From Verrucomicrobiota bacterium (GTDB taxonomy: Bacteria; Verrucomicrobiota; Verrucomicrobiia; JABWAM01), in assembly GCA_013288215.1 (NCBI GenBank), contig JABDCI010000005.1:2962-66961 (forward strand): a stretch of 64,000 nt of DNA, in the 5' to 3' direction. Both the position numbers and the translations under genes were made by a program. Below, in pieces: positions 9,438 through 47,920 of the stretch. Position 1 is the stretch's first letter. The number at the start of each line of letters is the position of its first letter. The notes under the pieces are model-generated. The model was not told the origin of the DNA. It was given only the letters and a program-made list of their open reading frames with translations, and did not search any database.

Positions 9438-9464
9438 GGATCGGCATCCTCCAGATAAACTTGA
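9438..9464 (-). promoter_or_regulatory. Sigma-28 (FliA)-type promoter for flgM
   Basis: The minus strand reads cAAGTTT-N11-GCCGATcc (AAGTTT at 9462-9457, GCCGAT at 9445-9440). The recalled FliA consensus is TAAAGTTT-N11-GCCGATAA. The -10 element ends about 26 nt upstream of the flgM ATG. Confidence 0.6.
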
Positions 9465-9534
9465 GGAAAAAAATACACCAAAACTAGGCATTTTTTGCCC
9501 ATTTTTGGCTTAAACCAGCTTTTTCCTCAAAAAA

Positions 9535-11399: not shown

Positions 11400-12364
11400 G
11401 ATGGATCTCCAAGAGAGGCAGCGCCGTTGCCGGTTGCGGGATCGGCGCGCTTGCGGGGCATGAGGCTGTCGACAAGAGTGCCGATTTTCTGCGCTTCCTC
11501 TTGGATCTGATTCGTAACCACCAACACATCCTCTTTTAATTCAAAGTTTTCGACGAGAAAATTCCAGGCCGGGGTTTCTGTGAAAAAGCCCTGCACCGGT
11601 TCCATGTTCCCGGAGCATCCGACCTGGTGAAGGCGCGCGAGAAAATCAGCGACATTCACGATCGCACCGATTTCCTGGTCCTTCACGGCAAGCTTCCAGT
11701 TGTGATGGCAGCGCACCGCCTCATAGACCGCGGGAGGGACATTTTGTCGTTCAAGGTACCATCCACCGAGCGCTCCGTGGTCGGTGTCGAAATAGAGTCG
11801 TTCGGCCTGATGGAAACTGAGGTTTTCAGCCCGCGCTTTGCTGATGACGAAGCCGAAGCCCTCCGGGGAGAGCATCGCGATCACGAGTTTGCCGACATCG
11901 TGCAGGAGCCCGGACATGTAATCCAGCTCGGGATTGTTTTTGGCGCGTTTGAACCGTTTGCCGAGGGAGCATGAAAATTGTGCGGTGGCGATGCAGTGAC
12001 GCCAGAAATCCTCCCAGACGAAACCTGACCGATCTTGAGGACTCAACACCTCGACACAGTGGGTCGTCATGCTAAGCATGCGAAGCTGTTCGACGCCGAG
12101 AAAAAGGACTGCCTCATCGATGTCCACGACCGGCTCCGGGCGCGCGTAATAAGCGGAGTTGGCCATCCGCAAAAGACGCACGGAAAGCGATGGATCGCGC
12201 GAAATCTCCTGGCCGATCTGCGCAATGGTGGCCTTGGGATCGCTCGTGTAGGCGCCGAGTTTTTTCAGAATACCCTTCAGTGTGGGCAAATGACCCACTG
12301 AACTTTCCTTTTCCAGGCGCTTCCTCAGCGCTGGCATGAGCAAAATGGAGGATGAGGGAACCAC
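11396..12364 (-). CDS. HDOD-domain signalling protein
   Basis: LPTLKGILKKLGAYTSDPKATIAQIGQEISRDPSLSVRLLRMANSAYY and LLHDVGKLV are typical of HDOD domains. There is a 4-nt overlap with the downstream regulator. An alternative ATG start lies at 12337. Confidence 0.85.
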   Translation of the reverse strand: MVPSSSILLMPALRKRLEKESSVGHLPTLKGILKKLGAYTSDPKATIAQIGQEISRDPSLSVRLLRMANSAYYARPEPVVDIDEAVLFLGVEQLRMLSMTTHCVEVLSPQDRSGFVWEDFWRHCIATAQFSCSLGKRFKRAKNNPELDYMSGLLHDVGKLVIAMLSPEGFGFVISKARAENLSFHQAERLYFDTDHGALGGWYLERQNVPPAVYEAVRCHHNWKLAVKDQEIGAIVNVADFLARLHQVGCSGNMEPVQGFFTETPAWNFLVENFELKEDVLVVTNQIQEEAQKIGTLVDSLMPRKRADPATGNGAASLGDPS

Positions 12365-20570: not shown

Positions 20571-21434
20571 ATGCGAAGCGTTGGGTGCGCGATCGTGGTT
20601 CTTTTTTTTATCTTGTTTCCGGATTTTCGCGTCAGCGCGGAGGAGCGCAACATGGTGGTGGAAGTTTATCCGCTCGCACTTGCGGATTTTGATGCTTCTA
20701 TTGAAATCGCAAGGGGGCTCGTGTCACCTGAAGGCAAGCTTGTTGAAGATCGCCCCGGCAATCGCCTCATCGTGCTCGATTATCCGGAGAAGCAGGCGGA
20801 GCTTCGTATAGCGTTGAAGACTGTCGGCACGCCTCAATACAATGTACGCATCGAAGTAACATTCGATGACAACGGCGAAATCCGTTCCGATGCGATCGGG
20901 GTTCAGGGTGGTTTTCGTGTGGGTCATATTCAGGCTCCAAGCGAGCTTCCTCATGCTTCGGAGACCCACGTGGAAATCAATAGGCTGGAGGAATCACGCG
21001 CTGCGATTGTGCATCAGGAGCTTCTTGTGATGAGCGGATCCAGGGGCCGGTTGCGTGTCGGCACCGACGTGCCTTACGCGGATTGGTTCTGGAACTATGG
21101 CACGCAACTTGGATTGTGGAGCGGCGCGCTCCGATGGAAGGAACTAGGCGCGCAAATGGCGGTCGAACCTTATGTCCTGGGCCAGCGCATCCGTCTGCGT
21201 TTAACGCCGGAATTCAGCTACATGCTCGATGGAGAAAGCATGACCACCAGCGTGGAAAAGTTAATGACGGAACTATGGGTCCAGAATGGCGAGGAGGTAG
21301 ACCTTGGCGGAATATCAGCATCCGACCGGGAATTTTTTTCGCGATTTCTTGTCGGCTATAATCGTCTGGGTGAGAAGCATTCCCTTCGCATCAAGGTCAA
21401 ACCAACCATCGAACCCATCGGGCCGGCTTCTTAG
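20571..21434 (+). CDS. Short secretin-like protein (one NolW/Secretin_N-like domain plus a reduced secretin-like C-terminal region)
   Basis: It has a signal peptide ending VSA. VVEVYPLALADFDASIEIARGLVSPEGKLVEDRPGNRLIVLDYPEKQAELRIAL fits the Secretin_N pattern. NVRIEVTF and ELWVQNGEEVDLGGI...SLRIKVKPTI resemble secretin-domain start and end motifs. The CDS is solid, but the functional call is tentative. Confidence 0.45.
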   Translation: MRSVGCAIVVLFFILFPDFRVSAEERNMVVEVYPLALADFDASIEIARGLVSPEGKLVEDRPGNRLIVLDYPEKQAELRIALKTVGTPQYNVRIEVTFDDNGEIRSDAIGVQGGFRVGHIQAPSELPHASETHVEINRLEESRAAIVHQELLVMSGSRGRLRVGTDVPYADWFWNYGTQLGLWSGALRWKELGAQMAVEPYVLGQRIRLRLTPEFSYMLDGESMTTSVEKLMTELWVQNGEEVDLGGISASDREFFSRFLVGYNRLGEKHSLRIKVKPTIEPIGPAS

Positions 21435-25209: not shown

Positions 25210-26301
25210 ATGAAAGAATACCTGGACGGAATTCTCAAATACGCGGTGAACGTGGGTGCATCGGATATTCATTTGAAGCCGAACAAACAGCCCATTCTTC
25301 GAGTTTCGGCCCAACTGGTTCATGTGGAGGCGGATGCACCCACCGATTCGGACATGATCAAGATCGCTCAGCTGATTGTCCCGGAGTTTTTACGCGAGCG
25401 ATTTAACCATGATCGAGAGGTGGACTTTTCCTATTTCGTGCCGGAGATCGGGCGTTTCCGCACGAACATTTATACTCAGCGCGGACAAGTCAATGTGGCG
25501 ATGCGCTATGTGAAGAGTAAAGTTCCGAATTTCAACGCGCTGAATCTTCCCGAAGTTCTGAAAAAATTGGCGATGAGCGAGCGAGGCATCATTCTGGTGG
25601 CCGGCGCGACGGGCAGCGGCAAATCGACGACGCTCGCGTGCATGCTCGAATACGTCAATTCGCATGACAAATGCCACATCATCACGATGGAGGATCCGAT
25701 CGAATATGTTTTCGAGGATAAGCAGTGCATTATCAACCAACGCGAGGTGGGGCTTGATACTATGTCGTTTGGCGCGGCGCTCAAAAACGTGCTGCGCCAG
25801 GATCCCGATGTGATCATGGTGGGTGAGATGCGCGATGCGGAAAGTTTTTCGGCGGCGATCACCGCTGCTGAGACAGGCCATCTGGTCATGACCACGGTCC
25901 ACTCCAATAATGCCACGCAGACCATCGTCCGCGTGCTCGACTTCTTCCCGATGGAGGAACGTGAGCAGATATTGCGGGCGCTCGCGGGCTGTCTTACGGC
26001 GATCATTTGCCAGCGTATGATTCCCGCGCGTGAAGGTGGCGCGGTGCCGGCGGTGGAAATTCTTATCAACACGCCCGTTGTGCGCAAACTCCTGGAGGAG
26101 CAAAAACTCGAAAAGTTGTCCTCCGCTCTCGAGGCCGGCAGCGATGACGGCATGCAGTCCTTCAATCAATCCATTTATAAATTGATCAAGGCAGGCATGA
26201 TCAGTGAGGAAGATGGGGTGCTTAAGTCGTCCAATCCTGATCAACTTCGCATGAATTTGAAGGGCATCTTCTTGGATGAATCGCGCCGGATCATTGGATA
26301 A
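25210..26301 (+). CDS. pilT: Type IV pilus retraction ATPase PilT/PilU family
   Basis: It shows GASDIHLKPN, Walker A GATGSGKSTT, the Asp box MEDPIEY, Walker B QDPDVIMVGEMRD and the His box GHLVMTTVHSNNA. Length is 363 aa. Confidence 0.9.
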   Translation: MKEYLDGILKYAVNVGASDIHLKPNKQPILRVSAQLVHVEADAPTDSDMIKIAQLIVPEFLRERFNHDREVDFSYFVPEIGRFRTNIYTQRGQVNVAMRYVKSKVPNFNALNLPEVLKKLAMSERGIILVAGATGSGKSTTLACMLEYVNSHDKCHIITMEDPIEYVFEDKQCIINQREVGLDTMSFGAALKNVLRQDPDVIMVGEMRDAESFSAAITAAETGHLVMTTVHSNNATQTIVRVLDFFPMEEREQILRALAGCLTAIICQRMIPAREGGAVPAVEILINTPVVRKLLEEQKLEKLSSALEAGSDDGMQSFNQSIYKLIKAGMISEEDGVLKSSNPDQLRMNLKGIFLDESRRIIG

Positions 26302-26321
26302 GCGGCGCGCATATCTGATTC

Positions 26322-27503
26322 ATGAATTCCTTCCGTTCCCTTTCCTCGAGGTGGCGTGTCGGTTGGGAGGATTGCCTACGCGCGGGACGGTGGCTTTGCC
26401 GCGACCGATTGAGCCTGGTCACCGCGATTTGCCTTGTTTTGGCTTTCCTGGTGCAGTTTGTCGGCATCGCAGGCATCTTTTGGTCGCGCGTTTATTTCGG
26501 AGATCATTTCGATCCTAGCGTCTATCAAACGTTTGAAGAAAAAAGATCGGACGATTCTGTCAGCAAGGTTTTTCGTCAGAAGGAAGCCGAAGCCGCGCGC
26601 CGCGCCGCAGAGTCTCCCATGCAAGACTCGGTTTCTGAGACGGTGGATCGGGCGACCCAGGAGATGGACCAGACTCGCGCCCGCCGAAACGAGGTATCCA
26701 TTATCAAACGCGAGGCTGAAAAACGTGCGGATGCGTTTCTTCGCCAGGCACAGGGATCGATGGATCACGATCTTTCAGAGACCGCCATGGAGCAGATTCA
26801 GAGCGCATTGCGTCTGGTCCCGGACTATCTGCCTGCGATCCGCAAGCTCGCGGATTATTACGAAGCAAGGCATGATTATGCGCAGGCCAGATTTCAGTGG
26901 GAACGCGCTGCTGTTATTGCCCAACCGCAGACACCGGAAATGGAGGAGATCCAGCGCGATCTGGACCGGCTGACAGCGCTTTCTGCCGAAGTGAAGGGCG
27001 AATCGCACCCGGCATCCAATTTTCACGTGGAAGCGCCTGCAGCTCCGCCGAATCCCGGCCGAATTGGAACGAACGAACTTTCCGTCAAAGCGGCTACCCG
27101 GACTGATCTTCCATTGCAGGACCTGTACGACCTTTGCTTTAATTTGCGTCTTTCGCTTGCTTCACGGGGCGAGGAAGCTTCCATGGATTATAACGATACT
27201 CGTGTGGAGATCGTTTTCTATGACCAGTCGCGCACGGCAGGTGGGATGTTAATTCCGCTCAAAGTGCTGAGCACCATTGTGAAGCCGAAGCAAAACTGGA
27301 CGACGGGAACCGAGCAGGTGTTGTCTGTGAAATATTCCGTGCCCAAAGGTTATTTTCGTAAGAAAGAGCAGAGTTTTGGGAATGCCTATTCTTTTTGCGG
27401 ATATATCGTGAATGCCTATTACCGAGGCAAGCTTTTGGACGCTTATGCTTATCCTTCGGAAGTGCTCTCAAGGTATGCGCCTAAGCCAGGAGGAACGTCG
27501 TGA
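26322..27503 (+). CDS. Membrane-anchored protein of unknown function (TM, coiled-coil/TPR-like region, C-terminal beta-rich domain)
   Basis: It has a single TM, LVTAICLVLAFLVQFVGIAGIFW. A charged helical region contains a TPR-like segment, ALRLVPDYLPAIRKLADYYEARHDYAQARFQWERA. It starts 20 nt after pilT and ends in a GTGA overlap with the next gene. Confidence 0.7.
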   Translation: MNSFRSLSSRWRVGWEDCLRAGRWLCRDRLSLVTAICLVLAFLVQFVGIAGIFWSRVYFGDHFDPSVYQTFEEKRSDDSVSKVFRQKEAEAARRAAESPMQDSVSETVDRATQEMDQTRARRNEVSIIKREAEKRADAFLRQAQGSMDHDLSETAMEQIQSALRLVPDYLPAIRKLADYYEARHDYAQARFQWERAAVIAQPQTPEMEEIQRDLDRLTALSAEVKGESHPASNFHVEAPAAPPNPGRIGTNELSVKAATRTDLPLQDLYDLCFNLRLSLASRGEEASMDYNDTRVEIVFYDQSRTAGGMLIPLKVLSTIVKPKQNWTTGTEQVLSVKYSVPKGYFRKKEQSFGNAYSFCGYIVNAYYRGKLLDAYAYPSEVLSRYAPKPGGTS

Positions 27504-29800
27504 AAGTTCTTCTGCTGGACAACGATCCCGCGGCAGCCGTGGATGTCCCGGCGGCATTTCATGGGAGTGCGTTTGACGTGGTTCTCGCTGCCACCCAGGC
27601 AGACGCCCAGTTTTCACTTGAACGAGAGTTTTTTGAAATCCTGATCGTTCACGTCGACGATCAGGATCATTCGCTTGTGCCGTTTGGTCTTCGGATGATT
27701 GCAAAATATCCGCATCTAAAACTCGGTTTTCTCACCGAACATCCTTCGTTGATCGGTTCCGAGGCAGCGCAAAAGGCCCAACTAGGCGTGCTTGAAAAAC
27801 CGCTTTCGCCATCAAAATTGACGCTGATCATCGACACGGCGCATCTCCACTCGCGCCATTACAGCAGTCTCAACGACGTGCGGCAAAAAATGGCCGCGGG
27901 CGGGTTCGGCACGTTCAGTCTCGTCGACGTGATTCAGATGTGTTGTATCAGCCAAAAGACAGGATTGCTTATCGTGCGGTCCAGTGGGCGCGAAGGCGAC
28001 ATGTACGTCCAGAGCGGCGCGATCGTGCATGCAGAGGCGCCTGGCCTTGAGGGCGAAGAGGCTGTCTATGAAATGCTTTCATGGGAGGATGCGCAGTCTT
28101 CGCTGAATGAGAGCGTGCAAGCTCCGAAGATGACAATCCAAGTGGGATGGGAGCACCTCCTGATGGAGGGTGTGCGCCGCAAAGACGAGATGCTTGAGAG
28201 GCAAGATCTCCGCTCCGATGCGGGCGCAGAGCAACTTCTTGGGAAAATGGTGGGTCCCTTCCGCGTCGATCGAAAAATCGCATCCGATTACTGGGGGACG
28301 CTTTACGAAGCGTATCAAGTGGCGGTCAATCGTCCTGTGGCTCTGAAGGTCTTGAATCCCGCTTTTTATGGCGATGGCGACAAGGCACAGCAGTTCATTT
28401 TCTTCGCGAGCGCCATGGCGCGAGCGCAAAATCCGTACATTGTGACCGTCTACGAGGCAGGCCAGGCCAATGGGCTCATCTTTTACGCGCGGGAGCAGGT
28501 GGACGGAGCGGGCCTGAAGGATCGCATTCGCCGGGGTGAGGTAATCTCCGAGGAACTGGCTTTGCGCGTGATTACCAATGTGGGCGAAGCGCTGAAATAT
28601 GAGAAGGACCACAATATTCTGCACCTGCCGCTCCTGATTGATCAAATTTTGATTCCCGACACGGGGGTTCCGAAGCTTTTCAACAATGTCACCATAGAAG
28701 GTGGCGATGTGAGTCCGGGCGAGGTGGATGAGATTCATCGGTTGACGGCCATTATTCGCCAAGCGCTTCCTGCCGAACAAATGACGCCAGGTTTTCGAAA
28801 CTTCGTGGAGCGCATGGAGGGACAAGGGTTTTCGGAATGGTCGAATGTGCTTTTGGAAGCACGCGAAATGGAACTGCATCTGCGTGCGGATCGCGTCGAT
28901 GTCAGCATGAGTTCGGTGCCAGCGGCGGAACCCGAGCCACCTCCTCCCAAAAACGCGAAATGGTGGATTTTCGGCGGAATTTTTCTCGCGCTGCTGTTCG
29001 TAGGTTCGTGGGGTTATTGGTATTGGATCAATTCTTCTCCTGGCGCACAAGATTTGGAATCGATGGTTGAGGTTCCCTCGGGACCTTTTATTTACCAGAC
29101 AGATAAAATGGGATTGCCGACCTACTACATCGACAAATACGAAGTGACGATCGGCCAGTACGGAAAGTTTCTCCAAGCGTGGCAGCACAATCACGCCATC
29201 ATCCAGGAGCATCCGAAACAACGTCCCGGCAAGGACCATACACCTGGACAATGGGACCTCATCCTTTCCGCCATCGAGAAAAAGACACTGCTCAATGGCG
29301 TCAGGATTTATGAAAACACACCTGTTTTCAACGTGGATTACTTCGACGCGTGGGCTTATGCCAAATGGGCGGGCAAGCGCTTGCCCACCGAATATGAGTG
29401 GGAAAAGGCGGCGCGGGGAAAGGATGGATTTCTCTACCCATGGGGCAATGCTTTCGATCCCAAAAAGGCGAATACAGGTGCGGATTTGAGCTACAGTGCG
29501 TCGGATCCCACGTTTGGAAAAATTGACGGCTATGGAATCTGGGCGCCGGTGGGAGCGATTCCGGAGGATAAAAGTCCGTTCGGAGCGATGGATATGGCGG
29601 GCAATGTCAGTGAATGGACAGATTCCTGGGATGCCAATCCTGATTTTCCAACGGAGCAAGTGCCCGTGGTGCGCGGCGGTTCATGGGCGGTTACCGATGT
29701 GCGGCTGACTCTGCGCGATTTGCGCCAGGCTCCTTTGAAGCGCAGTCGCCAAATTGGATTCCGTTGTGCGTCCGATCTGCCGCCGGCTCGCGATCATTAG
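27500..29800 (+). CDS. Multidomain signalling protein: REC-like, DUF4388-like, degenerate Ser/Thr kinase (pseudokinase), TM, and FGE-sulfatase (SUMF1-like) domain
   Basis: The GTG start has an AGGAGG Shine-Dalgarno sequence. REC-like: MKVLLLDNDP...VLEKPLS. DUF4388-like: FSLVDVIQMCCISQKTGLLIVRS...GAIVHAE...GEEAVYEMLSW. Kinase-like: VALKVL is present, but HRD is replaced by HLPLLIDQ and DFG by LFN. The TM is WWIFGGIFLALLFVGSWGYWYWI. FGE domain: YYIDKYEVT, RLPTEYEWEKAARG, GNVSEW and VVRGGSW. Confidence 0.8.
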   Translation: MKVLLLDNDPAAAVDVPAAFHGSAFDVVLAATQADAQFSLEREFFEILIVHVDDQDHSLVPFGLRMIAKYPHLKLGFLTEHPSLIGSEAAQKAQLGVLEKPLSPSKLTLIIDTAHLHSRHYSSLNDVRQKMAAGGFGTFSLVDVIQMCCISQKTGLLIVRSSGREGDMYVQSGAIVHAEAPGLEGEEAVYEMLSWEDAQSSLNESVQAPKMTIQVGWEHLLMEGVRRKDEMLERQDLRSDAGAEQLLGKMVGPFRVDRKIASDYWGTLYEAYQVAVNRPVALKVLNPAFYGDGDKAQQFIFFASAMARAQNPYIVTVYEAGQANGLIFYAREQVDGAGLKDRIRRGEVISEELALRVITNVGEALKYEKDHNILHLPLLIDQILIPDTGVPKLFNNVTIEGGDVSPGEVDEIHRLTAIIRQALPAEQMTPGFRNFVERMEGQGFSEWSNVLLEAREMELHLRADRVDVSMSSVPAAEPEPPPPKNAKWWIFGGIFLALLFVGSWGYWYWINSSPGAQDLESMVEVPSGPFIYQTDKMGLPTYYIDKYEVTIGQYGKFLQAWQHNHAIIQEHPKQRPGKDHTPGQWDLILSAIEKKTLLNGVRIYENTPVFNVDYFDAWAYAKWAGKRLPTEYEWEKAARGKDGFLYPWGNAFDPKKANTGADLSYSASDPTFGKIDGYGIWAPVGAIPEDKSPFGAMDMAGNVSEWTDSWDANPDFPTEQVPVVRGGSWAVTDVRLTLRDLRQAPLKRSRQIGFRCASDLPPARDH

Positions 29801-29905
29801 TCTGAAGTTGTTGCGGCAGAGGAGTTTGTTTGCATTTTGGTTTGTTTGCACTATTTTACTCAAAAAGACGGTGGAAGGACCGATCTCTTCCTTAAGTCGC
29901 TCATC

Positions 29906-30748
29906 ATGGCTAAGCCCAAGCGTTCCAGCGCCGAGTACGAGCAACTGCTCCAGACGGTGCAGATGTTCGAAGTTATTGCCGAGACTCAGCCCAACGACAT
30001 TCAGTCGCTGGAAATCCTAAAAGAAGCGTATTTGAATCTCGATCGCGACGGCGATGCGGTCGTGGTGGCAAAAAAAATCGCGCAGGCTTACGTCAGTCTG
30101 GGACAATTGTCGTCCGCGATTCTCGAATATGAAGGCATTCTCCAGCGCGCGCCGGACGACCCCGACTGCCTTGCGGCACTGGGCGAACTCGAAGGCAAGA
30201 TGACGGGTCTATCCGTGGGGTCGGCTGAAATTGTGGCGGGGAAAGTTGCGGCGGAGCAAGCGCTCGCCGATGCCGAGCAGTTTGAAGACGGCAACGAAGC
30301 CCTTCTTAAATTTTTTCAGGAACAGCAGCTTGTCACGGAAAAGGATGCCAAGACCTTGCTGGCGGGAATTTCTGCGGCAGTTGCGCAGACATCGCCCGAA
30401 CGGCCTGCGCCGTCTCTCATCGCACTTATCAGTGAGCGGGGAATTGCTTCCGAGGAGAAGTGTCTTGGGTTGATCGCGGAGAAAACGCGCATTCCATTCC
30501 TTCCTCTGGGCAGCTACGAGATTGAGAGTGGGCGCGCGCAGTCGCTGGCGAAGGAGTTCAAACTCAAGCATCTCGTGCTTCCTTTTGACCAAATCAGCAA
30601 AACCCTGCTTGTGGCGACCGTGAATCCCTTCGATGCCTTGGCAAAACGGCGCGTGGAAAAAGAAGCTGAAGGGCGCGTGCAATGGTATGTCACTTCGCCG
30701 TTTGATATCACGAAGCAGCTTAAAGATCTTTATCACATTTTGACATGA
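29906..30748 (+). CDS. TPR-like plus T2SSE_N (GspE/MshE N-terminal)-domain protein without an ATPase domain
   Basis: From the ATG at 29906 it reads MAKPKRSSAEYEQLL. The TPR-like helices read LEILKEAYLNLDRDGDAVVVAKKIAQAYVSLGQLSSAILEYEGILQRAPDD. The C-terminus LGLIAEKTRIPFLPLGSYEIE...LKHLVLPFDQISKTLLVATVNPFD is typical of T2SSE_N. It ends in an ATGA overlap with pilB. Confidence 0.7.
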   Translation: MAKPKRSSAEYEQLLQTVQMFEVIAETQPNDIQSLEILKEAYLNLDRDGDAVVVAKKIAQAYVSLGQLSSAILEYEGILQRAPDDPDCLAALGELEGKMTGLSVGSAEIVAGKVAAEQALADAEQFEDGNEALLKFFQEQQLVTEKDAKTLLAGISAAVAQTSPERPAPSLIALISERGIASEEKCLGLIAEKTRIPFLPLGSYEIESGRAQSLAKEFKLKHLVLPFDQISKTLLVATVNPFDALAKRRVEKEAEGRVQWYVTSPFDITKQLKDLYHILT

Positions 30749-32448
30749 AATCCTTTGGTGAGCGCATTGCAGATGCTTTGATTGAGGACGGAGTCCTGCA
30801 AACAGAACAGTTGCAGGAAGTGATGGTGCAGCAAAAAAGTCAGGGAGGACGGCTTCTCAAGATCCTTCTGGATAAATCGTATGTGACAGAGCAGGACATG
30901 ATGGTAAGCATGGGCCGCACGCTGGGTACGCCACCCATTAATCTGAGCCGGTTGAAGGTGGTGAAGGAGGTTGCCGATCTCGTGCCCCGCGATGTTGCCA
31001 GGAATCACCATCTTCTTCCCTTCGCCAAGCTCAACAATACGCTTTACGTGGCAATGGCTGATCCGTTGAACGTGCTGGCACTCGATGACGTGCGTCAGAT
31101 CACGCATCTGGAGGTGTTTCCGATGATCACCACGGAACGCATGGTGCTCGACGCGATCGCGAACATCGACGCCCAGGCGAGCCAGGGAATGGAGGAGATC
31201 ATTAAGGACGAGTCCGTTGACATTGAAGTTTCCGACACCCCTGCGGAGGAGGAGGCCGATGTGACGTCAACGGATTCTTCCGCCGCGCCCGTTGTCAAAA
31301 TTGCCAACCTCATGTTCGCCACGGCGGTGAAGGACAAGGCGAGCGACATCCATCTTGAGTGTTACGAGCGCAGCATGAAATTGCGCTACCGCATCGATGG
31401 TTCCCTTTACGATTATCCACCGCCTCCGAAAGGCATGCAGGCTGCGTTGATTTCGCGCCTCAAAATCATGGCCCATCTCGACATCTCCGAACGCCGTTTG
31501 CCGCAAGACGGTCGCGTGCGCATCAAGATGGCGGGGCGTGACATCGATTTTCGTATGTCGTTTCTTCCCACCAAATATGGGGAAAAGGTCGTCGGTCGTA
31601 TTCTCGACAAAACATCCATTAGCGGAAGCATCGCGGAAATCGGGATGGATCCAGACTCGATGAAGATTTTCAAGGATGCGCTCGATGAACCCCAGGGAAT
31701 GATTCTCGTGACGGGCCCCACCGGATCCGGAAAAACACGCACGCTTTATTCAGCTTTGGCCGAATTGAACAAACCCCAATACAATATTGTCACGGTCGAG
31801 GATCCGATCGAATATGAATTGCCGGGCATCAATCAGGTGCAGGTGAAATCGGACATCGGATTCACGTTTGCCGCTGCTCTGCGATCGATTTTACGCCAAG
31901 ATCCGGACATCGTGATGATTGGTGAAATGCGCGACCAGGAGACGGCGCATATCGGCGTCGAAGCAGCCCTGACCGGCCACCAGGTATTAAGCACGCTTCA
32001 TACCAATGACGCTGCCAGCGCTGTGACTCGTCTGACCGATATGGACATTGAGCCCTTTCTGACGACATCCAGCCTCTCGCTCGCCTGCGCTCAGCGGCTC
32101 CTGCGCCGCGTCTGCACCTCGTGCAAGGAAGCGGTGAAGGTTCCTGACAAATTATGGGAGCAGCTGCGCATCAATCCGAAGGAAGAGGCGGCGTTTACGT
32201 TCTATAAAGGGCGCGGTTGCGATCGCTGCAAAAACAAAGGCTACTCCGGACGGTGCGCCGTGATCGAGCTGATTCGCATCAACGACGACCTTCGCAAACT
32301 CATCCTCGAGCGCACGAGTGCCGCGGAAATCAAGACGCTTGCGCTCAAACAGGGGATGCGCACGTTACGCATCAATGGTATTCTTAAGGCGCGCGAAGGC
32401 ATTACCACCCTCGAAGAAGTTCTGGCAAATACGGCGAGCGATCTGTGA
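30745..32448 (+). CDS. pilB: Type IV pilus assembly ATPase PilB (GspE family)
   Basis: It has an N-terminal T2SSE_N domain, Walker A GPTGSGKTRT, VEDPIEY, Walker B QDPDIVMIGEMRD, GHQVLSTLHTND, and a tetracysteine motif CTSC...CDRC. Length is 567 aa. Confidence 0.92.
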   Translation: MKSFGERIADALIEDGVLQTEQLQEVMVQQKSQGGRLLKILLDKSYVTEQDMMVSMGRTLGTPPINLSRLKVVKEVADLVPRDVARNHHLLPFAKLNNTLYVAMADPLNVLALDDVRQITHLEVFPMITTERMVLDAIANIDAQASQGMEEIIKDESVDIEVSDTPAEEEADVTSTDSSAAPVVKIANLMFATAVKDKASDIHLECYERSMKLRYRIDGSLYDYPPPPKGMQAALISRLKIMAHLDISERRLPQDGRVRIKMAGRDIDFRMSFLPTKYGEKVVGRILDKTSISGSIAEIGMDPDSMKIFKDALDEPQGMILVTGPTGSGKTRTLYSALAELNKPQYNIVTVEDPIEYELPGINQVQVKSDIGFTFAAALRSILRQDPDIVMIGEMRDQETAHIGVEAALTGHQVLSTLHTNDAASAVTRLTDMDIEPFLTTSSLSLACAQRLLRRVCTSCKEAVKVPDKLWEQLRINPKEEAAFTFYKGRGCDRCKNKGYSGRCAVIELIRINDDLRKLILERTSAAEIKTLALKQGMRTLRINGILKAREGITTLEEVLANTASDL

Positions 32449-32516
32449 TTTGTCTTCGCCTGCTTAAGAATTTGATTCATTTTCAGCTTCTTCTTGGCTT
32501 TAAATAGCGCAGTTCA

Positions 32517-34298
32517 ATGGCCTTCCGGCTTCCATTTTTTAAGTCCAAAGCACCCGCCCAGCCCGCGGCGGGGGCTCCTGCACTGCCACCACCGGCGACG
32601 CCTCCGGCATCTGCATCCAGCCCCAGCGAATCGGTGGTTCGCTCTCCTGCACATACGCAACTAGCCCCATCCCTTGCGAGAAAGGTTCCACCGCGCCAGG
32701 GCAATCTGGCTGCCGCTCTCCAGGCTGCCTCTCAACTTCATCCGGCCGGAACTCAATCCGCTGTTTTCAAACCGAAGGTGAGCGTCGTCGTGAAGGCCCC
32801 ACCCGCTTCGGAGATCCCATCCATTTCGCGTGTGCCGGAACCTGTGATGGAGCAATCCGCCCCGCCGCCTGTCGAAATTCCTTCGACGGTGGATATTCCG
32901 ACATCGGAGATCCTTCCTCTGCTTCCTGAAAACGTGTTGAAACTCGGCTATACCGGAGGATTTCCATCGACTGTTTCGTTGTCTGTCACGGACATTCTAC
33001 CGCAATTGGCGAAGGGACGCGTGCTCTTTTCAATGAGTACGCTCCTGGCTTCGTTTCCGCCGGATTCCATTGAGGCGTCCGTCGTGGAAAGCGGCGACAT
33101 CCAGATCAAGATGCCTCTTCATCAAATCGTTCCCCGTCTTCCTGAGAGTGTGATGCAGCTTCCCACGGGGCAGGTAAAACAGCAAATCGACTCCACGATT
33201 GAGGTTCCATTTTCCGAAAAAGGAAACAAACCCGCGGTTCCGGCGCCCAAAGAAGCCTGGTCTGGACCTAAGCAACCCGAGCCTCCAGCTCTGCCTCCAA
33301 GGCCAATGGCACCCCCGCTTTCCCCTGCAAATTCCCCTTCAGAATCGAAGAGTCCGCTGCTCAAGGACAAACTTGCCGCCGCGACAGCGCTTACTCCGCT
33401 GACATCGCTTTCGCCCTCTGAGGCGACCAGCGCCCTAACCACCTCGATCAAGCTGCCGCTGAAGCCCACCGCTTCCGCGAAGATCCCGCTTCCTGGAATT
33501 CCAAGTCCGGCGCCTCTTCCATCGCCCTCGAAGTCATCGCCCACGATTCGCAAGCCGGATCCCGAGGATCCCATGATGGCTGCGACCATCAAATTTCAGC
33601 CGCCTTCGAATCTCAGAGAGCTGCCTTCGATCAAATTGCCGCATCCCATTGTGTCTCATGCTGAGACGCCTTCGTCGGCTCCTGCACCGATCATCTCTCC
33701 GTCGACGACCACGGGCGATGCCGGATTGTTTGGCACGAATGCCATTCCTCCGGCAGCTCTTCCCATGCTTCCTCGTCCCATCATCAAGTCTGCATCTGCG
33801 ATCATTCCCGTGCCGGACAAGCCCGTCCCACTTCCCCCGGTCGAGAACAAGTTGGTTACGCCCTCAAAACCAGTCGAATCCGTCTCCCAAGGATTGCGTT
33901 CTTTACTCGACATCCCGCAGCAGGACCCCATCCGCTTGCAGGACGTGGCGGCGAAGATTCGAACGCGCCTTAATTCGTTGGGGGTGTTAGTGGCTACCGA
34001 GGATGGTTTGCCGCTTGTCTCGGCAATGCCGGCCGGCGCCGATCTCAACGGCTGGAGCAGCATTGGCACCCACGTATTCCGCAAGTTGGAGCAAGTGAGC
34101 CATAAGCTCTCCTTCGGCACCCCCCAGCGTTGCCTGTTGAGTATCGACGATTGCTGGATTACTGTTTGGCATGACCATGGGGTCTACATGGTTGTGCGCC
34201 ACGGACTCGAACAGATCTCTCCGGAATTTGAAATGCAGATCTCCGAATTAGGAAAGGCAATTGCCGAACATTGCCGCACGCAGCACGCTGCCTCTTAG
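32517..34298 (+). CDS. Proline-rich protein with a C-terminal Roadblock/LC7 (MglB/MglC-like) domain
   Basis: About 480 aa are Pro/Ser/Ala-rich and low in complexity, with three copies of an ILPxLPExV-like motif. The C-terminal ~110 aa (LNSLGVLVATEDGLPLVSAMPAG...CLLSIDDCWITVWHDHGVYMVVRH) fit the Roadblock/LC7 pattern. The stop lies 3 nt before mglA. Confidence 0.7.
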   Translation: MAFRLPFFKSKAPAQPAAGAPALPPPATPPASASSPSESVVRSPAHTQLAPSLARKVPPRQGNLAAALQAASQLHPAGTQSAVFKPKVSVVVKAPPASEIPSISRVPEPVMEQSAPPPVEIPSTVDIPTSEILPLLPENVLKLGYTGGFPSTVSLSVTDILPQLAKGRVLFSMSTLLASFPPDSIEASVVESGDIQIKMPLHQIVPRLPESVMQLPTGQVKQQIDSTIEVPFSEKGNKPAVPAPKEAWSGPKQPEPPALPPRPMAPPLSPANSPSESKSPLLKDKLAAATALTPLTSLSPSEATSALTTSIKLPLKPTASAKIPLPGIPSPAPLPSPSKSSPTIRKPDPEDPMMAATIKFQPPSNLRELPSIKLPHPIVSHAETPSSAPAPIISPSTTTGDAGLFGTNAIPPAALPMLPRPIIKSASAIIPVPDKPVPLPPVENKLVTPSKPVESVSQGLRSLLDIPQQDPIRLQDVAAKIRTRLNSLGVLVATEDGLPLVSAMPAGADLNGWSSIGTHVFRKLEQVSHKLSFGTPQRCLLSIDDCWITVWHDHGVYMVVRHGLEQISPEFEMQISELGKAIAEHCRTQHAAS

Positions 34299-34301
34299 AT
34301 C

Positions 34302-34946
34302 ATGTCGATCATTAATTACGCCAACAAAGAGATCCAGTTTAAGATCGTCTACTACGGCCCCGCACTTTGCGGAAAAACCACCAATCTGTCCTACATCCAT
34401 TCCCAGGTCGCGCCTGAAAACAAAGGAGATCTCGTCTCCCTTGCCACAGCCGCCGACCGCACGCTTTTCTTCGATTTCCTTCCGCTCAATGCCGTTGTGA
34501 TCAAAGGCTTCAAGACCAAGTTCCAACTTTATACGGTGCCGGGCCAAGTCATCTACAACATCACGCGCCAACTTGTGCTGCGCAGTGTCGATGGCATTGT
34601 CTTCGTTGCCGATTCGCAGTGGGAAAAAATGGAGGAAAACATCGAGAGCTTCAAAAACCTCGAAGAAAATCTCACCAAACAGAATCTGAGCCTCGACACC
34701 GTTCCCTACGTGCTTCAATACAACAAGAGAGATATGCCGCATGTCGCGCCGATCAATTATATGGAGTATGTTCTCAACAACCGAAAGGTGAGGGTGCAGT
34801 CGTTCGAATCCGTGGCGAGCACCGGACAGAACGTGTTTTCGACGCTGAACGCCATCTCACGGCTTTTACTCTATAAGTTCACCAAAGAAAGCGACCTTGC
34901 CAACAAACGGTCCAAGACCACCGTGTTGATGTCGACAGTTCGGTAA
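34302..34946 (+). CDS. mglA: MglA-type Ras-like small GTPase
   Basis: [29 protein letters not shown]...[10 protein letters not shown]...YTVPGQV...VFVADSQ...QYNKRD closely parallels Myxococcus MglA as recalled from memory ([29 protein letters not shown]...). Confidence 0.9.
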   Translation: [214 protein letters not shown]

Positions 34947-34960
34947 CCTGGAAACCAATT

Positions 34961-35434
34961 ATGGAAACCATCCCCTTCTTGACCAAGGAAGACGTTGCCG
35001 CCCTCGACAGTCTTCTCATGCACTATCTTGAAAAAACGAGCGGTACGCTGACGCTTGTGATCGACAAAGGTGGGACCATCATTGCGCAGCAGGGCGAAAT
35101 AGAATCCATCGACATCGTCATTGTTTCCGCTCTCGCAGCAGGATCCTTCGCGGCGACCAAGGAATTGGCCCGCCGCATCGGTGAAAATGAATTCAGCGCT
35201 CTCTATCATCAGGGTGTAGACCGTCATATCTTCATGGCCGCGCTGGATGAGCACACCGTCATCGTGACGGTGTTTGGCGACCGCACCACGATAGGACTCG
35301 TACGCCTGTTTACGGTCAACGTCGCCGCCCAGCTTCGTACGCTGCTCAATCAGCTCCGGCAGCGCGACGGCCTCGAGCCGAAACTGGTTCTTGAAGAAGA
35401 TCTTCCCGTCGTCGGAGAGAATATTTTTGGCTAA
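34961..35434 (+). CDS. mglB: MglB-type Roadblock/LC7 protein (predicted MglA GAP)
   Basis: LVIDKGGTIIAQQG, IGENEF and TTIGLVRL match recalled MglB motifs (FLVDKNGQLIS, IGENEF, SLGLVRL). It starts 14 nt after mglA. Confidence 0.85.
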   Translation: METIPFLTKEDVAALDSLLMHYLEKTSGTLTLVIDKGGTIIAQQGEIESIDIVIVSALAAGSFAATKELARRIGENEFSALYHQGVDRHIFMAALDEHTVIVTVFGDRTTIGLVRLFTVNVAAQLRTLLNQLRQRDGLEPKLVLEEDLPVVGENIFG

Positions 35435-35494
35435 CCGCCGTTCCTTTGTTGCCACCAAAAGACGCCGGGCGGCTTGGCGCATTGTTTTGTTCGG

Positions 35495-43103: not shown

Positions 43104-45575
43104 ATGCAGAACCAGCCCAGCGAAGCCGGTCCGAGTCTGAAGCCGTGTCCTCAGTGCGGGACCATGGTGCAATTTAATTTGCAGGATGGCCGACACATCT
43201 GTCCGCAATGCGGGTACCTTCTTCCCGAACAGGTTGCCCACTACAAGCTGCTTCAGATCATCGGCACCGGCGGCATGGGGGCGGTTTACCGGGGCCTCGA
43301 TATCTCGCTCGAGCGAAACGTGGCAGTCAAGGTGATGCGCGAGGAATTCGCGAAAAATCCCCAATTTGTGGAAAGCTTTCTTCGTGAGGCGCGTGCCGCG
43401 GCTTCCCTCAACCATCCCAACGTTGCGCAAATTTATTCCTTCGGCGAGCAGGAGGGACGCTATTATCTTGTCATGGAACTGCTTCCTGGTGGAAGTCTCG
43501 ATGATCGTATCGAGAAAGAGCATCATGTATCGGAGGTGGATGTTTTGGATGTGGGAATCCAAGTGGCAAGCGGCTTGCGCGCGGCCTACGAGCGTGGATT
43601 GATCCATCGCGACATCAAGCCGGGCAACATTCTTTTTTCACAGGACGGAACGGCAAAGGTTGTGGATTTTGGCTTGGCGCGGTTCGTGACGAAGGCTGCT
43701 GCGCAGCACCAAGAAGAAGGCATTTGGGGAACTCCCTATTATATTGCACCCGAGAAGGTTTCGCAGAACAAAGAGGATTTCCGAAGCGATATTTACAGCC
43801 TTGGCGGCACGCTCTTTCATGCGTTGGCGGGACGTCCTCCTTTTGATGCCGGCACTTCGACCGAAGTCGTTCTCAAGCACCTGCATTCTCCCGCGGTTTC
43901 CCTCAAGACTTTCGCTCCCGACAGCACCGATCAGACTGCGGAAGTGATCGGGCGCATGCTTCGGCGCGATCCCGCTGACCGGCCGAAAAGCTACGACGAG
44001 TTGATCAATGCGCTGGCTTATGCGAAACGTTTTGCTCTCGAAAAAAGACCGCGTGCGGCTCTCGCTGAAGAGGACAGGGATCTTCCGATTGGCATGCTCG
44101 TGAGCACGGTGGCCATGATCGCTCTCACGCTGGCCCTTCTCGTATGGGGCTGGTATCACCGAAGCAAGATTTTCGGCGAGAGTCCGGGGTCTGCAGCGGT
44201 TTCGACAAATTCAATAACTCCGACCGCAAACACGGAAGCTGTTTCTCCTGCGCCGCAGCCTCAGGTTGCCACGCGTGACGAGTTCCTGATCGACATTGAC
44301 AACGCGCATGAGATCGCTAATCGCGAGGGCGCTTCTTCCGCCATCCCGCGTTTTGAGGACATTTTAAACCGCTTGCCCCCCAATCATGAGCTTCGACCGT
44401 GGGTCAAGTTGCACCTGGCTCGTGCCAAATTGATGACGGGCCGCGACGCTCCTGAGCTTGTGGAGCTGAGTGGCACGCGCACGGCTGACAGCTACGCCAA
44501 TGGTGTTAGCCCGGCAGACTACCCATTCTTTCTTGCGCTTTTGCTTCAAGGCAAAGTGCCTCAGGATGTATTCAGTCGTGCCATTTCAGGAATGCCCAGC
44601 TGGATGCAGGCGATCTCTCATTTCGACGCGGGCTTCGCCGCCCAAAAGCTGGACCGTCTCACAGACACTGCACGCTATTGGCGCGCTTACTCGGACATGA
44701 CGAAGGGCCCAGATGAAGAATGGGCCTTCGCGTATCAAACGCTCGCCCTCAATTTCGTGAATGAATACGAGCAGTACCAAACGATGGCGTCGGACATCAT
44801 GACCCTCCAAAATGCGGGAAGAGTCGAACAAGTTGCGACGCTCCTGAAAGAAAAGCAGGTTATCTGGCAAAATCCTTCCATTCGCACGCGCGTGGACAAG
44901 CTCACGGAGGTCAACCACGCTGCCCTTGCCAGGAAACGGGCGGACCAAGAGGAGAAAGCCCGACAAGAGGCGGCCCGACAGCAGGAGATCGACGCAGAAA
45001 ACCGATTGGTCGAAAATGCCCGCAGGCAGCGTGTCGGCTATCTCCAGGGATATCAATTCGATGCGCTTCTGGATTCCTGGCAAAAGCTTTCTTCTCAAGT
45101 GAAGTCGGATTCCAATCGCAAAGTGGTCCAGTATCATATCGAAGTGGACAAGTTGCTTGAGGAGTTCAAGCAGGTTCTGACGGAGGACATCCAGGATCAT
45201 CCTTATGAGGATCAGAATATCACCACCAAAACCAACTTGAAAATGGTCGGCATCCTTTCTGAAGTACGGGAAGAAAAGTTGATTTTCCGCACTCAATTTG
45301 CGCCAGGGCAAATCGCAGAAACTGCCTGCAAATGGTCGGATCTTTATCCCTCAACCATTTTGGAAATCGCCGAATATTATCTTGATCGCGATGAAAAAAC
45401 TTCCGGAGCGAATGCGAATGATCTGGCGCGGCGCGCGCTTATGATTGCGGTGTTCACTCGGGAATATGCTCTCTCCGAGGGCAAGATGCAAAAATATTTG
45501 GCCTATGCGATGAACGCCCAGGCTAATATTCGAAATCAAGTCGATCTGCTCTTTCCACCGGTCGTGCCGCGTTAA
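43104..45575 (+). CDS. Ser/Thr protein kinase with an N-terminal zinc ribbon, one TM and a large C-terminal domain of unknown function
   Basis: The zinc ribbon is CPQCG...CPQCG. The kinase motifs are intact: GTGGMGAVY, VAVKVM, HRDIKPGNIL, DFGLAR and GTPYYIAPE. The TM is IGMLVSTVAMIALTLALLVWGWY. About 470 aa of tail contain a coiled coil, RKRADQEEKARQEAARQQE. Confidence 0.9.
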   Translation: MQNQPSEAGPSLKPCPQCGTMVQFNLQDGRHICPQCGYLLPEQVAHYKLLQIIGTGGMGAVYRGLDISLERNVAVKVMREEFAKNPQFVESFLREARAAASLNHPNVAQIYSFGEQEGRYYLVMELLPGGSLDDRIEKEHHVSEVDVLDVGIQVASGLRAAYERGLIHRDIKPGNILFSQDGTAKVVDFGLARFVTKAAAQHQEEGIWGTPYYIAPEKVSQNKEDFRSDIYSLGGTLFHALAGRPPFDAGTSTEVVLKHLHSPAVSLKTFAPDSTDQTAEVIGRMLRRDPADRPKSYDELINALAYAKRFALEKRPRAALAEEDRDLPIGMLVSTVAMIALTLALLVWGWYHRSKIFGESPGSAAVSTNSITPTANTEAVSPAPQPQVATRDEFLIDIDNAHEIANREGASSAIPRFEDILNRLPPNHELRPWVKLHLARAKLMTGRDAPELVELSGTRTADSYANGVSPADYPFFLALLLQGKVPQDVFSRAISGMPSWMQAISHFDAGFAAQKLDRLTDTARYWRAYSDMTKGPDEEWAFAYQTLALNFVNEYEQYQTMASDIMTLQNAGRVEQVATLLKEKQVIWQNPSIRTRVDKLTEVNHAALARKRADQEEKARQEAARQQEIDAENRLVENARRQRVGYLQGYQFDALLDSWQKLSSQVKSDSNRKVVQYHIEVDKLLEEFKQVLTEDIQDHPYEDQNITTKTNLKMVGILSEVREEKLIFRTQFAPGQIAETACKWSDLYPSTILEIAEYYLDRDEKTSGANANDLARRALMIAVFTREYALSEGKMQKYLAYAMNAQANIRNQVDLLFPPVVPR

Positions 45576-45661: not shown

Positions 45662-47920
45662 TCAGTAAGGCAGTGGAAATCGGCGCGTGAGCTGTTTGAC
45701 ACTTTCGCGCACCTCGGCGAGCTTCGGTTCATCCTCGATGCTCACGAGCACGGTGGAAATGAGCGTTGCGATTTCGCGCATCTCGGCTTCTTTCATCCCG
45801 CGCGTCGTCACAGCAGGGGTGCCGATTCGGATGCCGCTCGTCACGAGCGGTTTTTCAGGGTCATACGGAATCAGATTTTTGTTCACGGTGATGCCTCCCT
45901 TGTCGAGGGCGATCTGAGCTTCTTTTCCTGTCACCTTTTGGTTGCGAAGATCGACGAGCATCAAATGATTGTCCGTGCCGCCGCTGACAATGCGGCAGCC
46001 ATTTTTATGGAGGCAATCGGCAAGCGTCTGAGCGTTTTTAACGATTTGCTCCTGGTAATCCTTAAATGAAGGCTGGAGGGCTTCTTGAAAGCAGACGGCT
46101 TTGGCGGCGATCACGTGCATCAAGGGGCCACCTTGGATGCCAGGCAGCACCATCGAATCGATCTCTTTGGCGAAACGTTCGCGGCAGAGGATAAGGCCGC
46201 CGCGAGGTCCGCGAAGGGTCTTATGCGTGGTCGTGGTGACGAAATCGGCATGCGGAACGGGGCTTGGATGAACACCGGTCGCGACCAAGCCGGCAATGTG
46301 GGCCATGTCGACGAAGAGCAAAGCATTCACCGAATTGGCGATTTGGCGCATTTTCTGAAAATCGATGATGCGAGGATAGGCGCTCGCGCCCACGGTGATG
46401 AGCTTTGGTTTATGTTCCTGCGCCAATTTCGCGGCGGTATCATAATCAATCCGCTCGTCTTCCTTCCGTACACCGTAGTGCACGACCTGATAAAATTGAC
46501 CTGAGAAGTTTCTGCTGAACCCATGCGTGAGATGGCCGCCGTGGGCGAGTTCCATCGTGAGGATCTTGTCGCCGGGCTTCAGGACGCTAAAGTAAACTGC
46601 CATATTGGCCTGGCTTCCGGAATGCGGCTGCACGTTGGCGTGTTCTGCTCCAAAGAGCTTTTTGGCGCGCTCGATGGCGAGCGATTCGGCAATGTCGACG
46701 AACTCGCATCCACCGTAATAGCGCTTTCCTGGATAACCTTCTGCATATTTGTTCGTCAGCACACTCCCCTGGGCCTCCAGGATGGCGGGGCTGGCGAAGT
46801 TTTCACTTGCGATGAGTTCGATGTTTTCCTGCTGACGCGTCTTTTCCTGTTGAATCGCGCGATAGATGGCCGGATCCGCATCGCGCAATACGGAGGAATC
46901 TCCCAGAGGCCTGTCCATTTTTTGGATTCGCTGCTCGTGGCGGCCACCCTCGAAGTGCGCCGTGAGCCAGCTATCAAGGATGCGCACCGCCTTGTCCGGA
47001 CCCGTCTCCATGGCTGCAAGACAGAGCACGTTGGCGTCGTTATGTTGGCGGCTCAGGCGAGCGGTGTTTTCGTCGTGCACCAGGGCGGCACGCGCGCCGG
47101 GGATGCGGTTGGCGGCCATGCTCATGCCGATGCCTGTCTTACAGATGAGCACGCCCAGATCGGCGCGCTGCTGAGCGACATCGCGGGCGACTGCCTGCCC
47201 GAAATCCGGATAATCTACGGATTCGGGCGTGAAAGTGCCGAGATCGGCGACCGGATATTGATTCTCTTCGAGATAAGATTTGAGAGCGTGTTTGAGCTCG
47301 ACTCCTCCATGATCGGCAGCAATGACAATGCTGGGTTTGTCCGTGCGTGAGCGTGAAGGTTTCGTGGAAGTTTGATTTTGCATAAATTTCAGGAGCGATG
47401 GAAGCGCGGATTGAATGGCATCCCGGCACGTTTGATACGTGAAATAGGATTGACCGATCGGATCGGGCACTTCGCGCTCAAACTCGGAAAGACCCTCTTC
47501 GAATTCCTTCACCAGGAAGAGTTTGTTGGCAGCCTCGGGATAAAGGGAAACGAGCGACCGAAAATGCGAGTGAGTCATCACAAAGATCGCATGGGCTTCC
47601 TGGATGAGCTTGTCGGTGACGGGCTGGGAGCGATGGTTTGAAATATCAAGGCCGATTTCACGCAACGCCCGCACCGCATTGTCGCTGGGGTGCTGTCCAG
47701 GATAGGCGCTTAAGCCGGCGGAAACGATTCGGATGCCGCCGCGATCTTGAACGAGTTGGCGCATTAAGCCTTCGGCCATCGGGCTGCGGCAGATGTTGCC
47801 TGTGCAAACAAAAAGAATGGTCTTCACGTATTCGGCGGCTGATCGGTTCCTCGCGCGTCCCAAAGAACGAAGCGGTTCCAGCAACCCGATAACTATTCCC
47901 TCCCATCCACTTGTCCGCAA
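45662..47920 (-). CDS. Tri-functional fusion: LMW protein (Tyr/Arg) phosphatase, ribose-5-phosphate isomerase B and serine hydroxymethyltransferase
   Basis: It is a single uninterrupted 752-codon ORF. Residues ~33-180 carry CTGNICRS (CX5R P-loop) and DP. Residues ~197-335 read [11 protein letters not shown]...[14 protein letters not shown]...FEGGRH (RpiB/LacAB). Residues ~345-752 read IELIASENF...[14 protein letters not shown]...[13 protein letters not shown] (GlyA). Confidence 0.85.

Follow-up and report, generated by a model that had tools for sequence, protein, structure and literature searches.

A 64,000-nucleotide stretch of the genome of a Verrucomicrobiota bacterium (assembly GCA_013288215.1, contig JABDCI010000005.1, positions 2,962-66,961 of the forward strand; hereafter the window) carries a same-strand cluster of eight genes in which the type IV pilus motor ATPase genes pilT and pilB lie together with those of the small GTPase MglA, its Roadblock partner MglB, and four further proteins, which we call O2, O3, O4 and O6 after their places as second, third, fourth and sixth of the eight open reading frames (ORFs). 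Comparison with related genomes resolves the cluster into two layers, a five-gene core found across Verrucomicrobiota (O4-pilB-O6-mglA-mglB) and a clade-specific pilT-O2-O3 extension. We think it somewhat probable, judging from domain content and from analogy with Myxococcus, that the MglA-GTP/MglB switch controls the place or time at which PilB engages the pilus machine, O4 and O6 serving as adaptors. The features of the cluster are as follows.

25210..26301, plus strand: pilT, retraction-type ATPase, 363 amino acids (TIGR01420, T2SSE); lineage-specific add-on
26322..27503, plus strand: O2, bitopic membrane protein of 393 amino acids with one hydrophobic segment; no known family
27500..29800, plus strand: O3, REC-like, PATAN, pseudokinase, transmembrane and FGE-sulfatase-like parts (Pfam, hhalign, hydropathy)
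29906..30748, plus strand: O4, short tetratricopeptide repeat (TPR) module plus paralogue of the PilB N-terminal region (MshEN), 280 amino acids (MshEN, TPR_14); first core gene
30745..32448, plus strand: pilB, extension-type ATPase with N-terminal MshEN, 567 amino acids (T2SSE, MshEN, TIGR02538)
32517..34298, plus strand: O6, N-terminal motif, X domain, Pro-rich linker and C-terminal Roadblock/LC7 domain, 593 amino acids (profile and AlphaFold2 model)
34302..34946, plus strand: mglA, predicted group-1 MglA small GTPase, 214 amino acids (match to M. xanthus MglA)
34961..35434, plus strand: mglB, Roadblock/LC7 partner of MglA, 157 amino acids (Robl_LC7; match to M. xanthus MglB)
35463..35479, plus strand: terminator-like hairpin after mglB (consensus scan; 7-bp stem with 5 GC pairs, T-rich tail)

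ORF listing and translation reproduced the eight plus-strand ORFs at 25210-35434 just as they had been described before, with 4-nt overlaps of the form GTGA between O2 and O3 and ATGA between O4 and pilB. The other junctions are gaps of 20 nt (pilT-O2), 105 nt (O3-O4), 68 nt (pilB-O6), 3 nt (O6-mglA) and 14 nt (mglA-mglB). O4 is taken to start at the ATG at 29906, as in the gene call of its closest relative (280 amino acids), and the longer TTG-initiated ORF from 29837 is not needed. Promoter and terminator scans of the cluster gave nothing above shuffled sequences except the hairpin after mglB, which possibly marks the end of the putative operon and is followed by coaX on the opposite strand; an Rfam scan found no riboswitch near the cluster. 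Because the core begins at O4 in other clades, the 105-nt gap in front of this gene may hold a promoter of its own.

A genome scan with MglA, at one genome per species, yielded at least 554 relatives, of which the best 80 loci (numbered L001 and so on) were analysed by tblastn with the eight window proteins. The 80 loci are labelled Verrucomicrobiota, including Verrucomicrobiae, Chthoniobacterales and “Spartobacteria”, apart from two short contigs binned as Planctomycetota, and the nearest MglA proteins come from Verrucomicrobiae and other Verrucomicrobiota metagenome-assembled genomes. Upstream linkage was counted only in the 48 loci that retain at least 4.5 kb of sequence upstream. In 46 of these, mglA has the O4-pilB pair upstream on its own strand, O4 is directly upstream of pilB in every pilB-bearing locus (46/46), and mglB directly follows mglA in all 80. 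The end of pilB and mglA are 1.9-3.8 kb apart, a space always occupied by one long O6-type ORF of 580-1,234 amino acids, which, wherever the upstream sequence is long enough, either ends 1-60 nt short of mglA or runs 14 nt into it. The linkage of mglA and mglB to pilB and the adaptor genes, on which the original prediction had staked itself, is thus kept in related genomes. Its picture of eight genes forming one compact module stands for the five-gene core and gives way for the remainder: besides the window, only L001, L002 and L086 have true orthologues of pilT, O2 and O3 5′ of the core, and L086 shares 76% identity with the window in PilT, 46% in O3 and 37% in O2. The two short contigs, L038 and L051, which had been assigned to Phycisphaerae and Pirellulales bins, encode an MglA that is 82% identical to that of the window together with a Chthoniobacterales-type O6 and are probably mis-binned Verrucomicrobiota.

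The recurrence of this arrangement in dozens of species-level genomes places it far beyond chance, and the persistence of the core beside housekeeping flanks that vary from clade to clade speaks for selection on the linkage itself. That the adjacency is a functionless accident or an assembly artefact could be suspected since all related records are metagenome-assembled genomes, a suspicion contradicted by the recovery of the same gene order in dozens of independent assemblies, among them the closed chromosomes OY969764.1 and OY969715.1 and contigs of more than 1 Mb; we regard it as extremely improbable.

The identity of the switch is clear from comparison with its Myxococcus counterparts. MglA matches M. 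xanthus MglA (5ymx) over residues 1-195 with an E value of 3.9e-70 and roughly 60% identity by eye, gives Arf/Ras-type matches in a profile scan, and keeps the P-loop, the arginine-finger segment DRTLFFDF (identical in the two proteins) and LYTVPGQV. The motif definition of group-1 MglA comes from Wuichet and Sogaard-Andersen 2014 (PMC4316618), and the window protein displays its features: a G3 motif reading TVPGQ, in which Thr replaces Asp and the catalytic Gln is present, an intrinsic arginine finger beside the G2 threonine, and coupling to an mglB gene, which lies 14 nt downstream here and adjoins mglA throughout the sampled loci. By these motifs MglA is assigned to group 1, with an intrinsic arginine finger and predicted GTPase activity. 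An exact sequence look-up of the window MglA matched no record. MglB scores 46.6 bits against Robl_LC7 (cut-off 23) and matches M. xanthus MglB (6h5b_B) at an E value of 1.3e-17; it remains under the cut-off of NF052242, the model of Thermus-type MglB (52.1 versus 200 bits), which is no argument against MglB function because that model is narrow. The 2014 survey found group-1 MglA neighborhoods to be variable, with mglA in the studied species not near partner genes, and listed Verrucomicrobia with group-5 MglA only, in Methylacidiphilum (PMC4316618); the present loci extend group 1 to this phylum.

The two ATPases differ in their N-terminal parts. PilT scores 426.2 bits against the PilT/PilU model TIGR01420 (cut-off 319.1) and 167 bits against T2SSE and consists of the T2SSE core only, with no N-terminal MshEN, as is typical of the PilT/PilU retraction ATPases. 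PilB combines T2SSE (441.9 bits) with MshEN (60.9 bits), and a tetracysteine motif, CTSC...CDRC, is visible in its translation. An MshE-type cyclic di-GMP (c-di-GMP) motif in PilB falls near threshold (35.7 versus 38 bits); read by eye against what we take to be the MshE motif, PilB has a well-fitting first repeat and a degenerate second one, whereas two motif-like repeats in O4 presumably lack the leading Arg, which makes nucleotide binding by O4 doubtful. A c-di-GMP phosphodiesterase-type protein with REC and HD-GYP domains is encoded at 10188-12364 on the minus strand, followed by an HDOD protein, some 13 kb upstream of pilT; it also scores 254.7 bits against a NosR-family model, under the cut-off of 400, and could be relevant to the near-threshold motif of PilB.

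O4 is a small protein with two recognizable ends. In the window it scores 41 bits for MshEN and 24 bits for TPR_14, with the TPR at residues ~35-95, a variable linker, and a PilB-N-like region at residues ~133-277; both ends are conserved, MshEN and TPR_14 being matched in 23/23 sampled family members. The family profile aligns with consensus TPR proteins at positions ~57-106 and matches residues 12-139 of M. xanthus PilB (3jc8; E value 3.5e-5) as well as residues 28-162 of a second solved PilB (5tsg/6olj). On these profiles, O4 is predicted to join a short TPR module to a free-standing copy of the N-terminal region of PilB. Matches of residues 28-70 to calmodulin and EF-hand proteins were discarded as chance, the motif not being conserved in the O4 family.

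O6, which as a full protein matched no family in profile scans, has four parts. Its N terminus bears a conserved motif (MAFRLPFFKSK in the window, MTIPFLSYFKK in Chthoniobacterales), and this is followed by an X domain of ~120 amino acids at residues 116-240 (nt 32862-33236), present in one copy in the window's clade and in two in Chthoniobacterales. The X domain had no Pfam match, no sequence in the PDB better than an E value of 1.2 and no Foldseek hit below an E value of 3; its AlphaFold2 model, with a mean predicted local distance difference test score (pLDDT) of 69.5 and a core at 80-90, shows a run of strand-helix units. A Pro-rich linker (23% Pro in the window protein) leads to the C-terminal domain at residues 459-593 (nt 33891-34295). 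The proposal that O6 ends in a Roadblock/LC7-like domain is borne out by a profile match to archaeal Roadblock proteins (E value 8e-7) and by the model of residues 456-593 (pLDDT 91), which Foldseek aligns at TM scores of 0.75-0.88 with Roadblock3 of the Asgard archaeon Prometheoarchaeum and with M. xanthus MglB. An Asp beside an invariant Gly, D26-G27 in MglC, marks the MglC-type clade of Roadblock proteins (McLoon et al., PMC4719450), and O6 carries this Asp-Gly signature, with an invariant D-G-L across its family, whereas the cognate MglB has D-K-G-G; the multidomain O6 departs from the single-domain, ~120-amino-acid form of MglC and from close similarity to it. The idea that O6 is simply a duplicated MglB was ruled out by the failure of its profile to align with that of MglB.

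An exhaustive profile search placed 419 cluster representatives, among 1.84 billion, in the O6 family, whose full-length members have 600-1,040 amino acids, and two profile searches of a 5.8-billion protein set returned mostly short O6 fragments. In L081 (7636-9975) and L083 (~8150-9990), the O6 gene calls cover only a C-terminal piece of 144-248 amino acids, with antisense ORFs called over the rest. The short fragments in databases thus arise at least partly because public gene calls break the Pro-rich ORF, and the family is consequently under-represented and mis-sized there. Of the earlier statement that half of the cluster's proteins have no characterized counterpart, what holds concerns O2, O6 and the X domain of O6.

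Evidence that the core belongs to a type IV filament comes from its neighbors in other clades. In Chthoniobacterales, O4 is preceded by divergently oriented genes that carry prepilin-type N termini and score best against the TIGRFAMs Verru_Chthon cassette families D, B, C and A, and also against GspH-, PilV-, GspJ- and GspK-type minor pilins. This D-B-C-A set adjoins the core in at least 23 loci (e.g., L082, 985-5261, minus strand), with scores at or below the family cut-offs (51.2 versus 51.4 bits for B; the others weak), and in L085 a full-length secretin gene of 702 amino acids takes its place beside the core. The arrangement suggests that the cassette encodes minor pilins of a filament driven by the core PilB, which would tie a so far unexplained gene set to a pilus-type ATPase. 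Retained amid changing flanks and repeatedly found beside filament genes, the linkage is arguably functional and connected to a type IV filament.

The window itself has no such neighbors: the Verru_Chthon cassette is absent, searches detected neither a prepilin motif nor, among the ~40 larger ORFs scanned, a PilC or PilM, and the sole secretin-like ORF, of 287 amino acids, is borderline, in agreement with the earlier statement that structural pilus genes are missing. This ORF (20571-21434, plus strand, ~4 kb upstream of pilT) has a signal-peptide-like hydrophobic N terminus and weak Secretin_N and Secretin matches (27.4 versus 27.5 bits), scores 29.7 against 284 for the PilQ model, and is far too short for PilQ. 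The description of the module as regulatory rather than structural is nevertheless not wholly right for the phylum, since in other clades a prepilin cassette or a secretin gene adjoins the core.

The extension was seen only in the window's clade. O2 has one clear transmembrane segment (residues 25-57) and homologues only in L001 (63% identity), L002 (34%) and L086 (37%); searches against Pfam and NCBIfam gave no significant family, and the TPR-like character once ascribed to it is not significant (TPR_2, E value 0.058). O3 comprises a REC-like region (residues 2-109), a PATAN domain (134-230), a pseudokinase (256-393), a transmembrane segment (~488-512, hydropathy peak at residue 488) and a periplasmic FGE-sulfatase-like domain (536-757), an architecture repeated in L081 and L086. 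Its scores are 70.4 bits for PATAN/DUF4388 (PF14332; cut-off 25), 155 for FGE-sulfatase and 36 for Pkinase, the last covering the N-lobe only. The pseudokinase assignment is confirmed by comparison with a canonical kinase of the window, HRD having become HLP and DFG having become LFN; the reference, an 823-amino-acid Ser/Thr kinase with both motifs intact, is encoded at 43104-45575 on the plus strand, 8 kb 3′ of mglB. The REC call is less secure than first proposed: hhalign aligns the N terminus with REC domains (95.6%, E value 1e-8), but Pfam REC gives no match even at an E value of 5, and His51 occupies the position of the phospho-acceptor Asp, a position that is not conserved in L002; K100-P101 is conserved. 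With these two reservations, on the O2 repeats and the O3 receiver, profile scans recovered the domains claimed for PilT, PilB, O3 (PATAN, kinase and FGE), O4 (TPR and MshEN), MglA, MglB and the Roadblock protein.

MglA control of type IV pili is a leading model of bacterial cell polarity, and Myxococcus offers the closest comparison. There, MglA-GTP stimulates type IV pili by way of SgmX, a TPR protein that possibly acts through PilB, and MglB keeps MglA-GTP from the other pole (PMC7519303), while the Roadblock paralogue MglC binds MglB and RomR (PMC4719450); the step from MglA-GTP to PilB is described in PMC7519303 and PMC11580455 as either direct or indirect and left unresolved. Both systems have the same type of MglA (P-loop, arginine finger, TVPGQ) with a Roadblock partner MglB, and both have a TPR protein and a second Roadblock protein associated with pil genes. 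By locus tag, Myxococcus sgmX (MXAN_5766) and mglC (MXAN_5770) lie beside pilQ (MXAN_5772) and near pilT (MXAN_5787), so TPR and Roadblock genes beside pil genes have a precedent; the earlier contention that the Myxococcus adaptors are encoded elsewhere is only partly right. The differences are that mglBA (MXAN_1925/1926) is remote from the pil genes in Myxococcus, whereas here mglA and mglB, in the order A then B, sit in the predicted pilB operon; that SgmX has 1,060 amino acids and TPRs only, whereas O4 has 280, with 2-3 TPRs and a PilB N-domain copy; that MglC is a single domain of ~120 amino acids, whereas O6, at 593, is multidomain and includes the new X domain; and that the window showed no gene for RomR, RomX or FrzS and none of the Frz genes. 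New relative to Myxococcus are thus the placement of the switch itself within the operon and two adaptors of different architecture.

To our knowledge, Bdellovibrio bacteriovorus has no MglB. In this species and in Thermus thermophilus, group-1 MglA likewise influences type IV pilus formation or polar localization, and a TPR partner of MglA, Bd2492, is known in Bdellovibrio (both as cited in PMC7519303). Cyanobacterial PATAN-REC regulators such as PixG and PixE, which bind PilB1, resemble O3, whose PATAN and REC-like domains are encoded near pilB and pilT; O3 differs in having the REC-like region before PATAN, in lacking a conserved acceptor Asp, in being anchored in the membrane and carrying both a pseudokinase and, on the periplasmic side, an FGE-sulfatase-like domain, and in being confined to the window's clade. 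PATAN genes are known as neighbors of mglA and mglB. Response regulators with a PATAN domain interact with the motor of the pilus, and PATAN occurs together with GspE_N proteins (bioRxiv 2021.06.11.447907). MshE/PilB control by c-di-GMP and the FimX-PilZ-PilB system share with the present one a regulation centered on the N-terminal MshEN of the ATPase, as discussed in PMC11580455; here, in contrast, a free-standing PilB N-region is fused to TPRs, and no PilZ or FimX was seen. Literature searches on an mglA-pilB operon or on Verrucomicrobia MglA returned nothing relevant, in a limited library that is not proof of absence, and as far as the literature could be searched, the linkage of mglA-mglB to pilB is undescribed.

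We posit that MglA-GTP would mark the site or the time at which PilB docks on the pilus base, and that MglB would turn MglA off elsewhere or end the signal. O4 could act as an effector-adaptor whose TPR module binds MglA-GTP or O6 and whose PilB-N-like domain pairs with the N-domain of PilB or fills the PilB docking site on the machine base. O6 could be a scaffold, its Roadblock domain pairing with MglB or binding MglA, as Roadblock dimers do, and its X domain or domains, Pro-rich linker and N-terminal motif tethering the complex to membrane, pole or motor. PilT, in the window's clade, would bring retraction under the same control, and O2 and O3, as a trans-membrane pair, could feed a periplasmic signal to the motor via the cytoplasmic PATAN domain, a plausible route because PATAN is a domain type that binds PilB1 in Synechocystis.

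Several observations weigh against this scheme. Gene identity and synteny are what the data establish directly, and all that lies beyond them we infer. The sample consists of the 80 MglA relatives that best match the query, of at least 554. The TPR part of O4 is tiny (2-3 repeats, ~60 residues) next to the full length of SgmX, so that O4 would possibly be a functional analogue of SgmX, not a member of its family. The O6 Roadblock profile does not align with that of its cognate MglB (hhalign probability 0.3%) and reaches MglC (7ct3) only at an E value of 0.95. Finally, the two loci of the 48 that lack O4-pilB, L003 and L004, and likewise L083, retain O6-mglA-mglB although no pilB lies within 10 kb, and PilB scores below the curated cut-offs of both the PilB model TIGR02538 (640.6 versus 675.65) and the GspE model TIGR02533 (595.8 versus 630.25).

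Because PilB misses both equivalog cut-offs, the filament type is not settled, PilB being the best full-length model. The ATPase could power a filament not devoted to motility, such as a type II secretion-like pseudopilus, an MSHA-like pilus for adhesion or a pilus for DNA uptake, with MglA and MglB timing or positioning secretion, adhesion or uptake. This would accord with the two sub-threshold scores, with the near-threshold MshE-type motif, with the best matches of the Chthoniobacterales cassette proteins to GspH, GspJ, GspK, ComG and PilV-type minor (pseudo)pilins, and with Thermus, where MglA affects pilus localization and not formation (as cited in PMC7519303). We nevertheless consider it unlikely, given that a PilT-family ATPase with a strong TIGR01420 match joins the operon in the window's clade and that PilB is the model that fits the ATPase best over its full length; it would, moreover, alter the output of the system and not its logic, since GTPase gating of an assembly ATPase would be unchanged.

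The loci without a nearby pilB imply that the GTPase unit is separable from the motor. They are what would be expected if O6, MglA and MglB formed a self-contained polarity module serving other processes, with O6 as a cofactor of GTPase activation or nucleotide exchange or as a polar landmark and with the adjacency of pilB reflecting shared regulation or history. The junction between O6 and mglA is the tightest everywhere, and in Myxococcus, according to the literature, MglA controls several machines. Such independence is hard to reconcile with a linkage to pilB that persists in all but two of the assessable loci while the flanks change, with the constant company that O4, a paralogue of the PilB N-domain, keeps with pilB in the core, and with the pilin, secretin or pilT genes repeatedly found beside it, and we judge it quite improbable. 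Gating of PilB by the MglA/MglB switch accordingly remains the interpretation that we prefer.

A bolder version of PilB gating, which we offer tentatively and hold to be possible rather than likely, casts O6 as a new class of small-GTPase regulator in which a Roadblock domain is joined to a fold of ~120 amino acids not seen before (an exchange factor, a landmark or an effector physically coupling MglA to PilB), O4 as a direct gate on motor docking, and the operon as a minimal, possibly ancestral MglA pilus polarity system. If it were true, the cluster would offer a compact, genetically tractable answer to the question of how MglA-GTP activates PilB. More generally, the placement of mglAB beside pilB with two adaptor genes supplies concrete candidates for the missing MglA-PilB link, and the presence of the operon across Verrucomicrobiota suggests that the connection between MglA and the pilus is old and not a myxobacterial speciality. 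The conserved X domain and the combination of TPRs with a PilB N-domain are, in addition, new subjects for structural work.

Elsewhere in the window, a 752-amino-acid ORF at 45662-47920 on the minus strand encodes three enzymes in one chain: a low-molecular-weight phosphotyrosine phosphatase/ArsC-like domain at residues 35-177, followed by ribose-5-phosphate isomerase B at 198-335 and by serine hydroxymethyltransferase at 345-721. The block at 50420-57050 has a cobalamin riboswitch (56054-56252, minus strand, 52 bits) ahead of genes for a periplasmic binding protein, a TonB-dependent receptor and an ABC transporter with ATPase and permease fused, and two Diphthami_syn_2 paralogues, at 53221-53958 and 56208-57050, lie in and beside that block.

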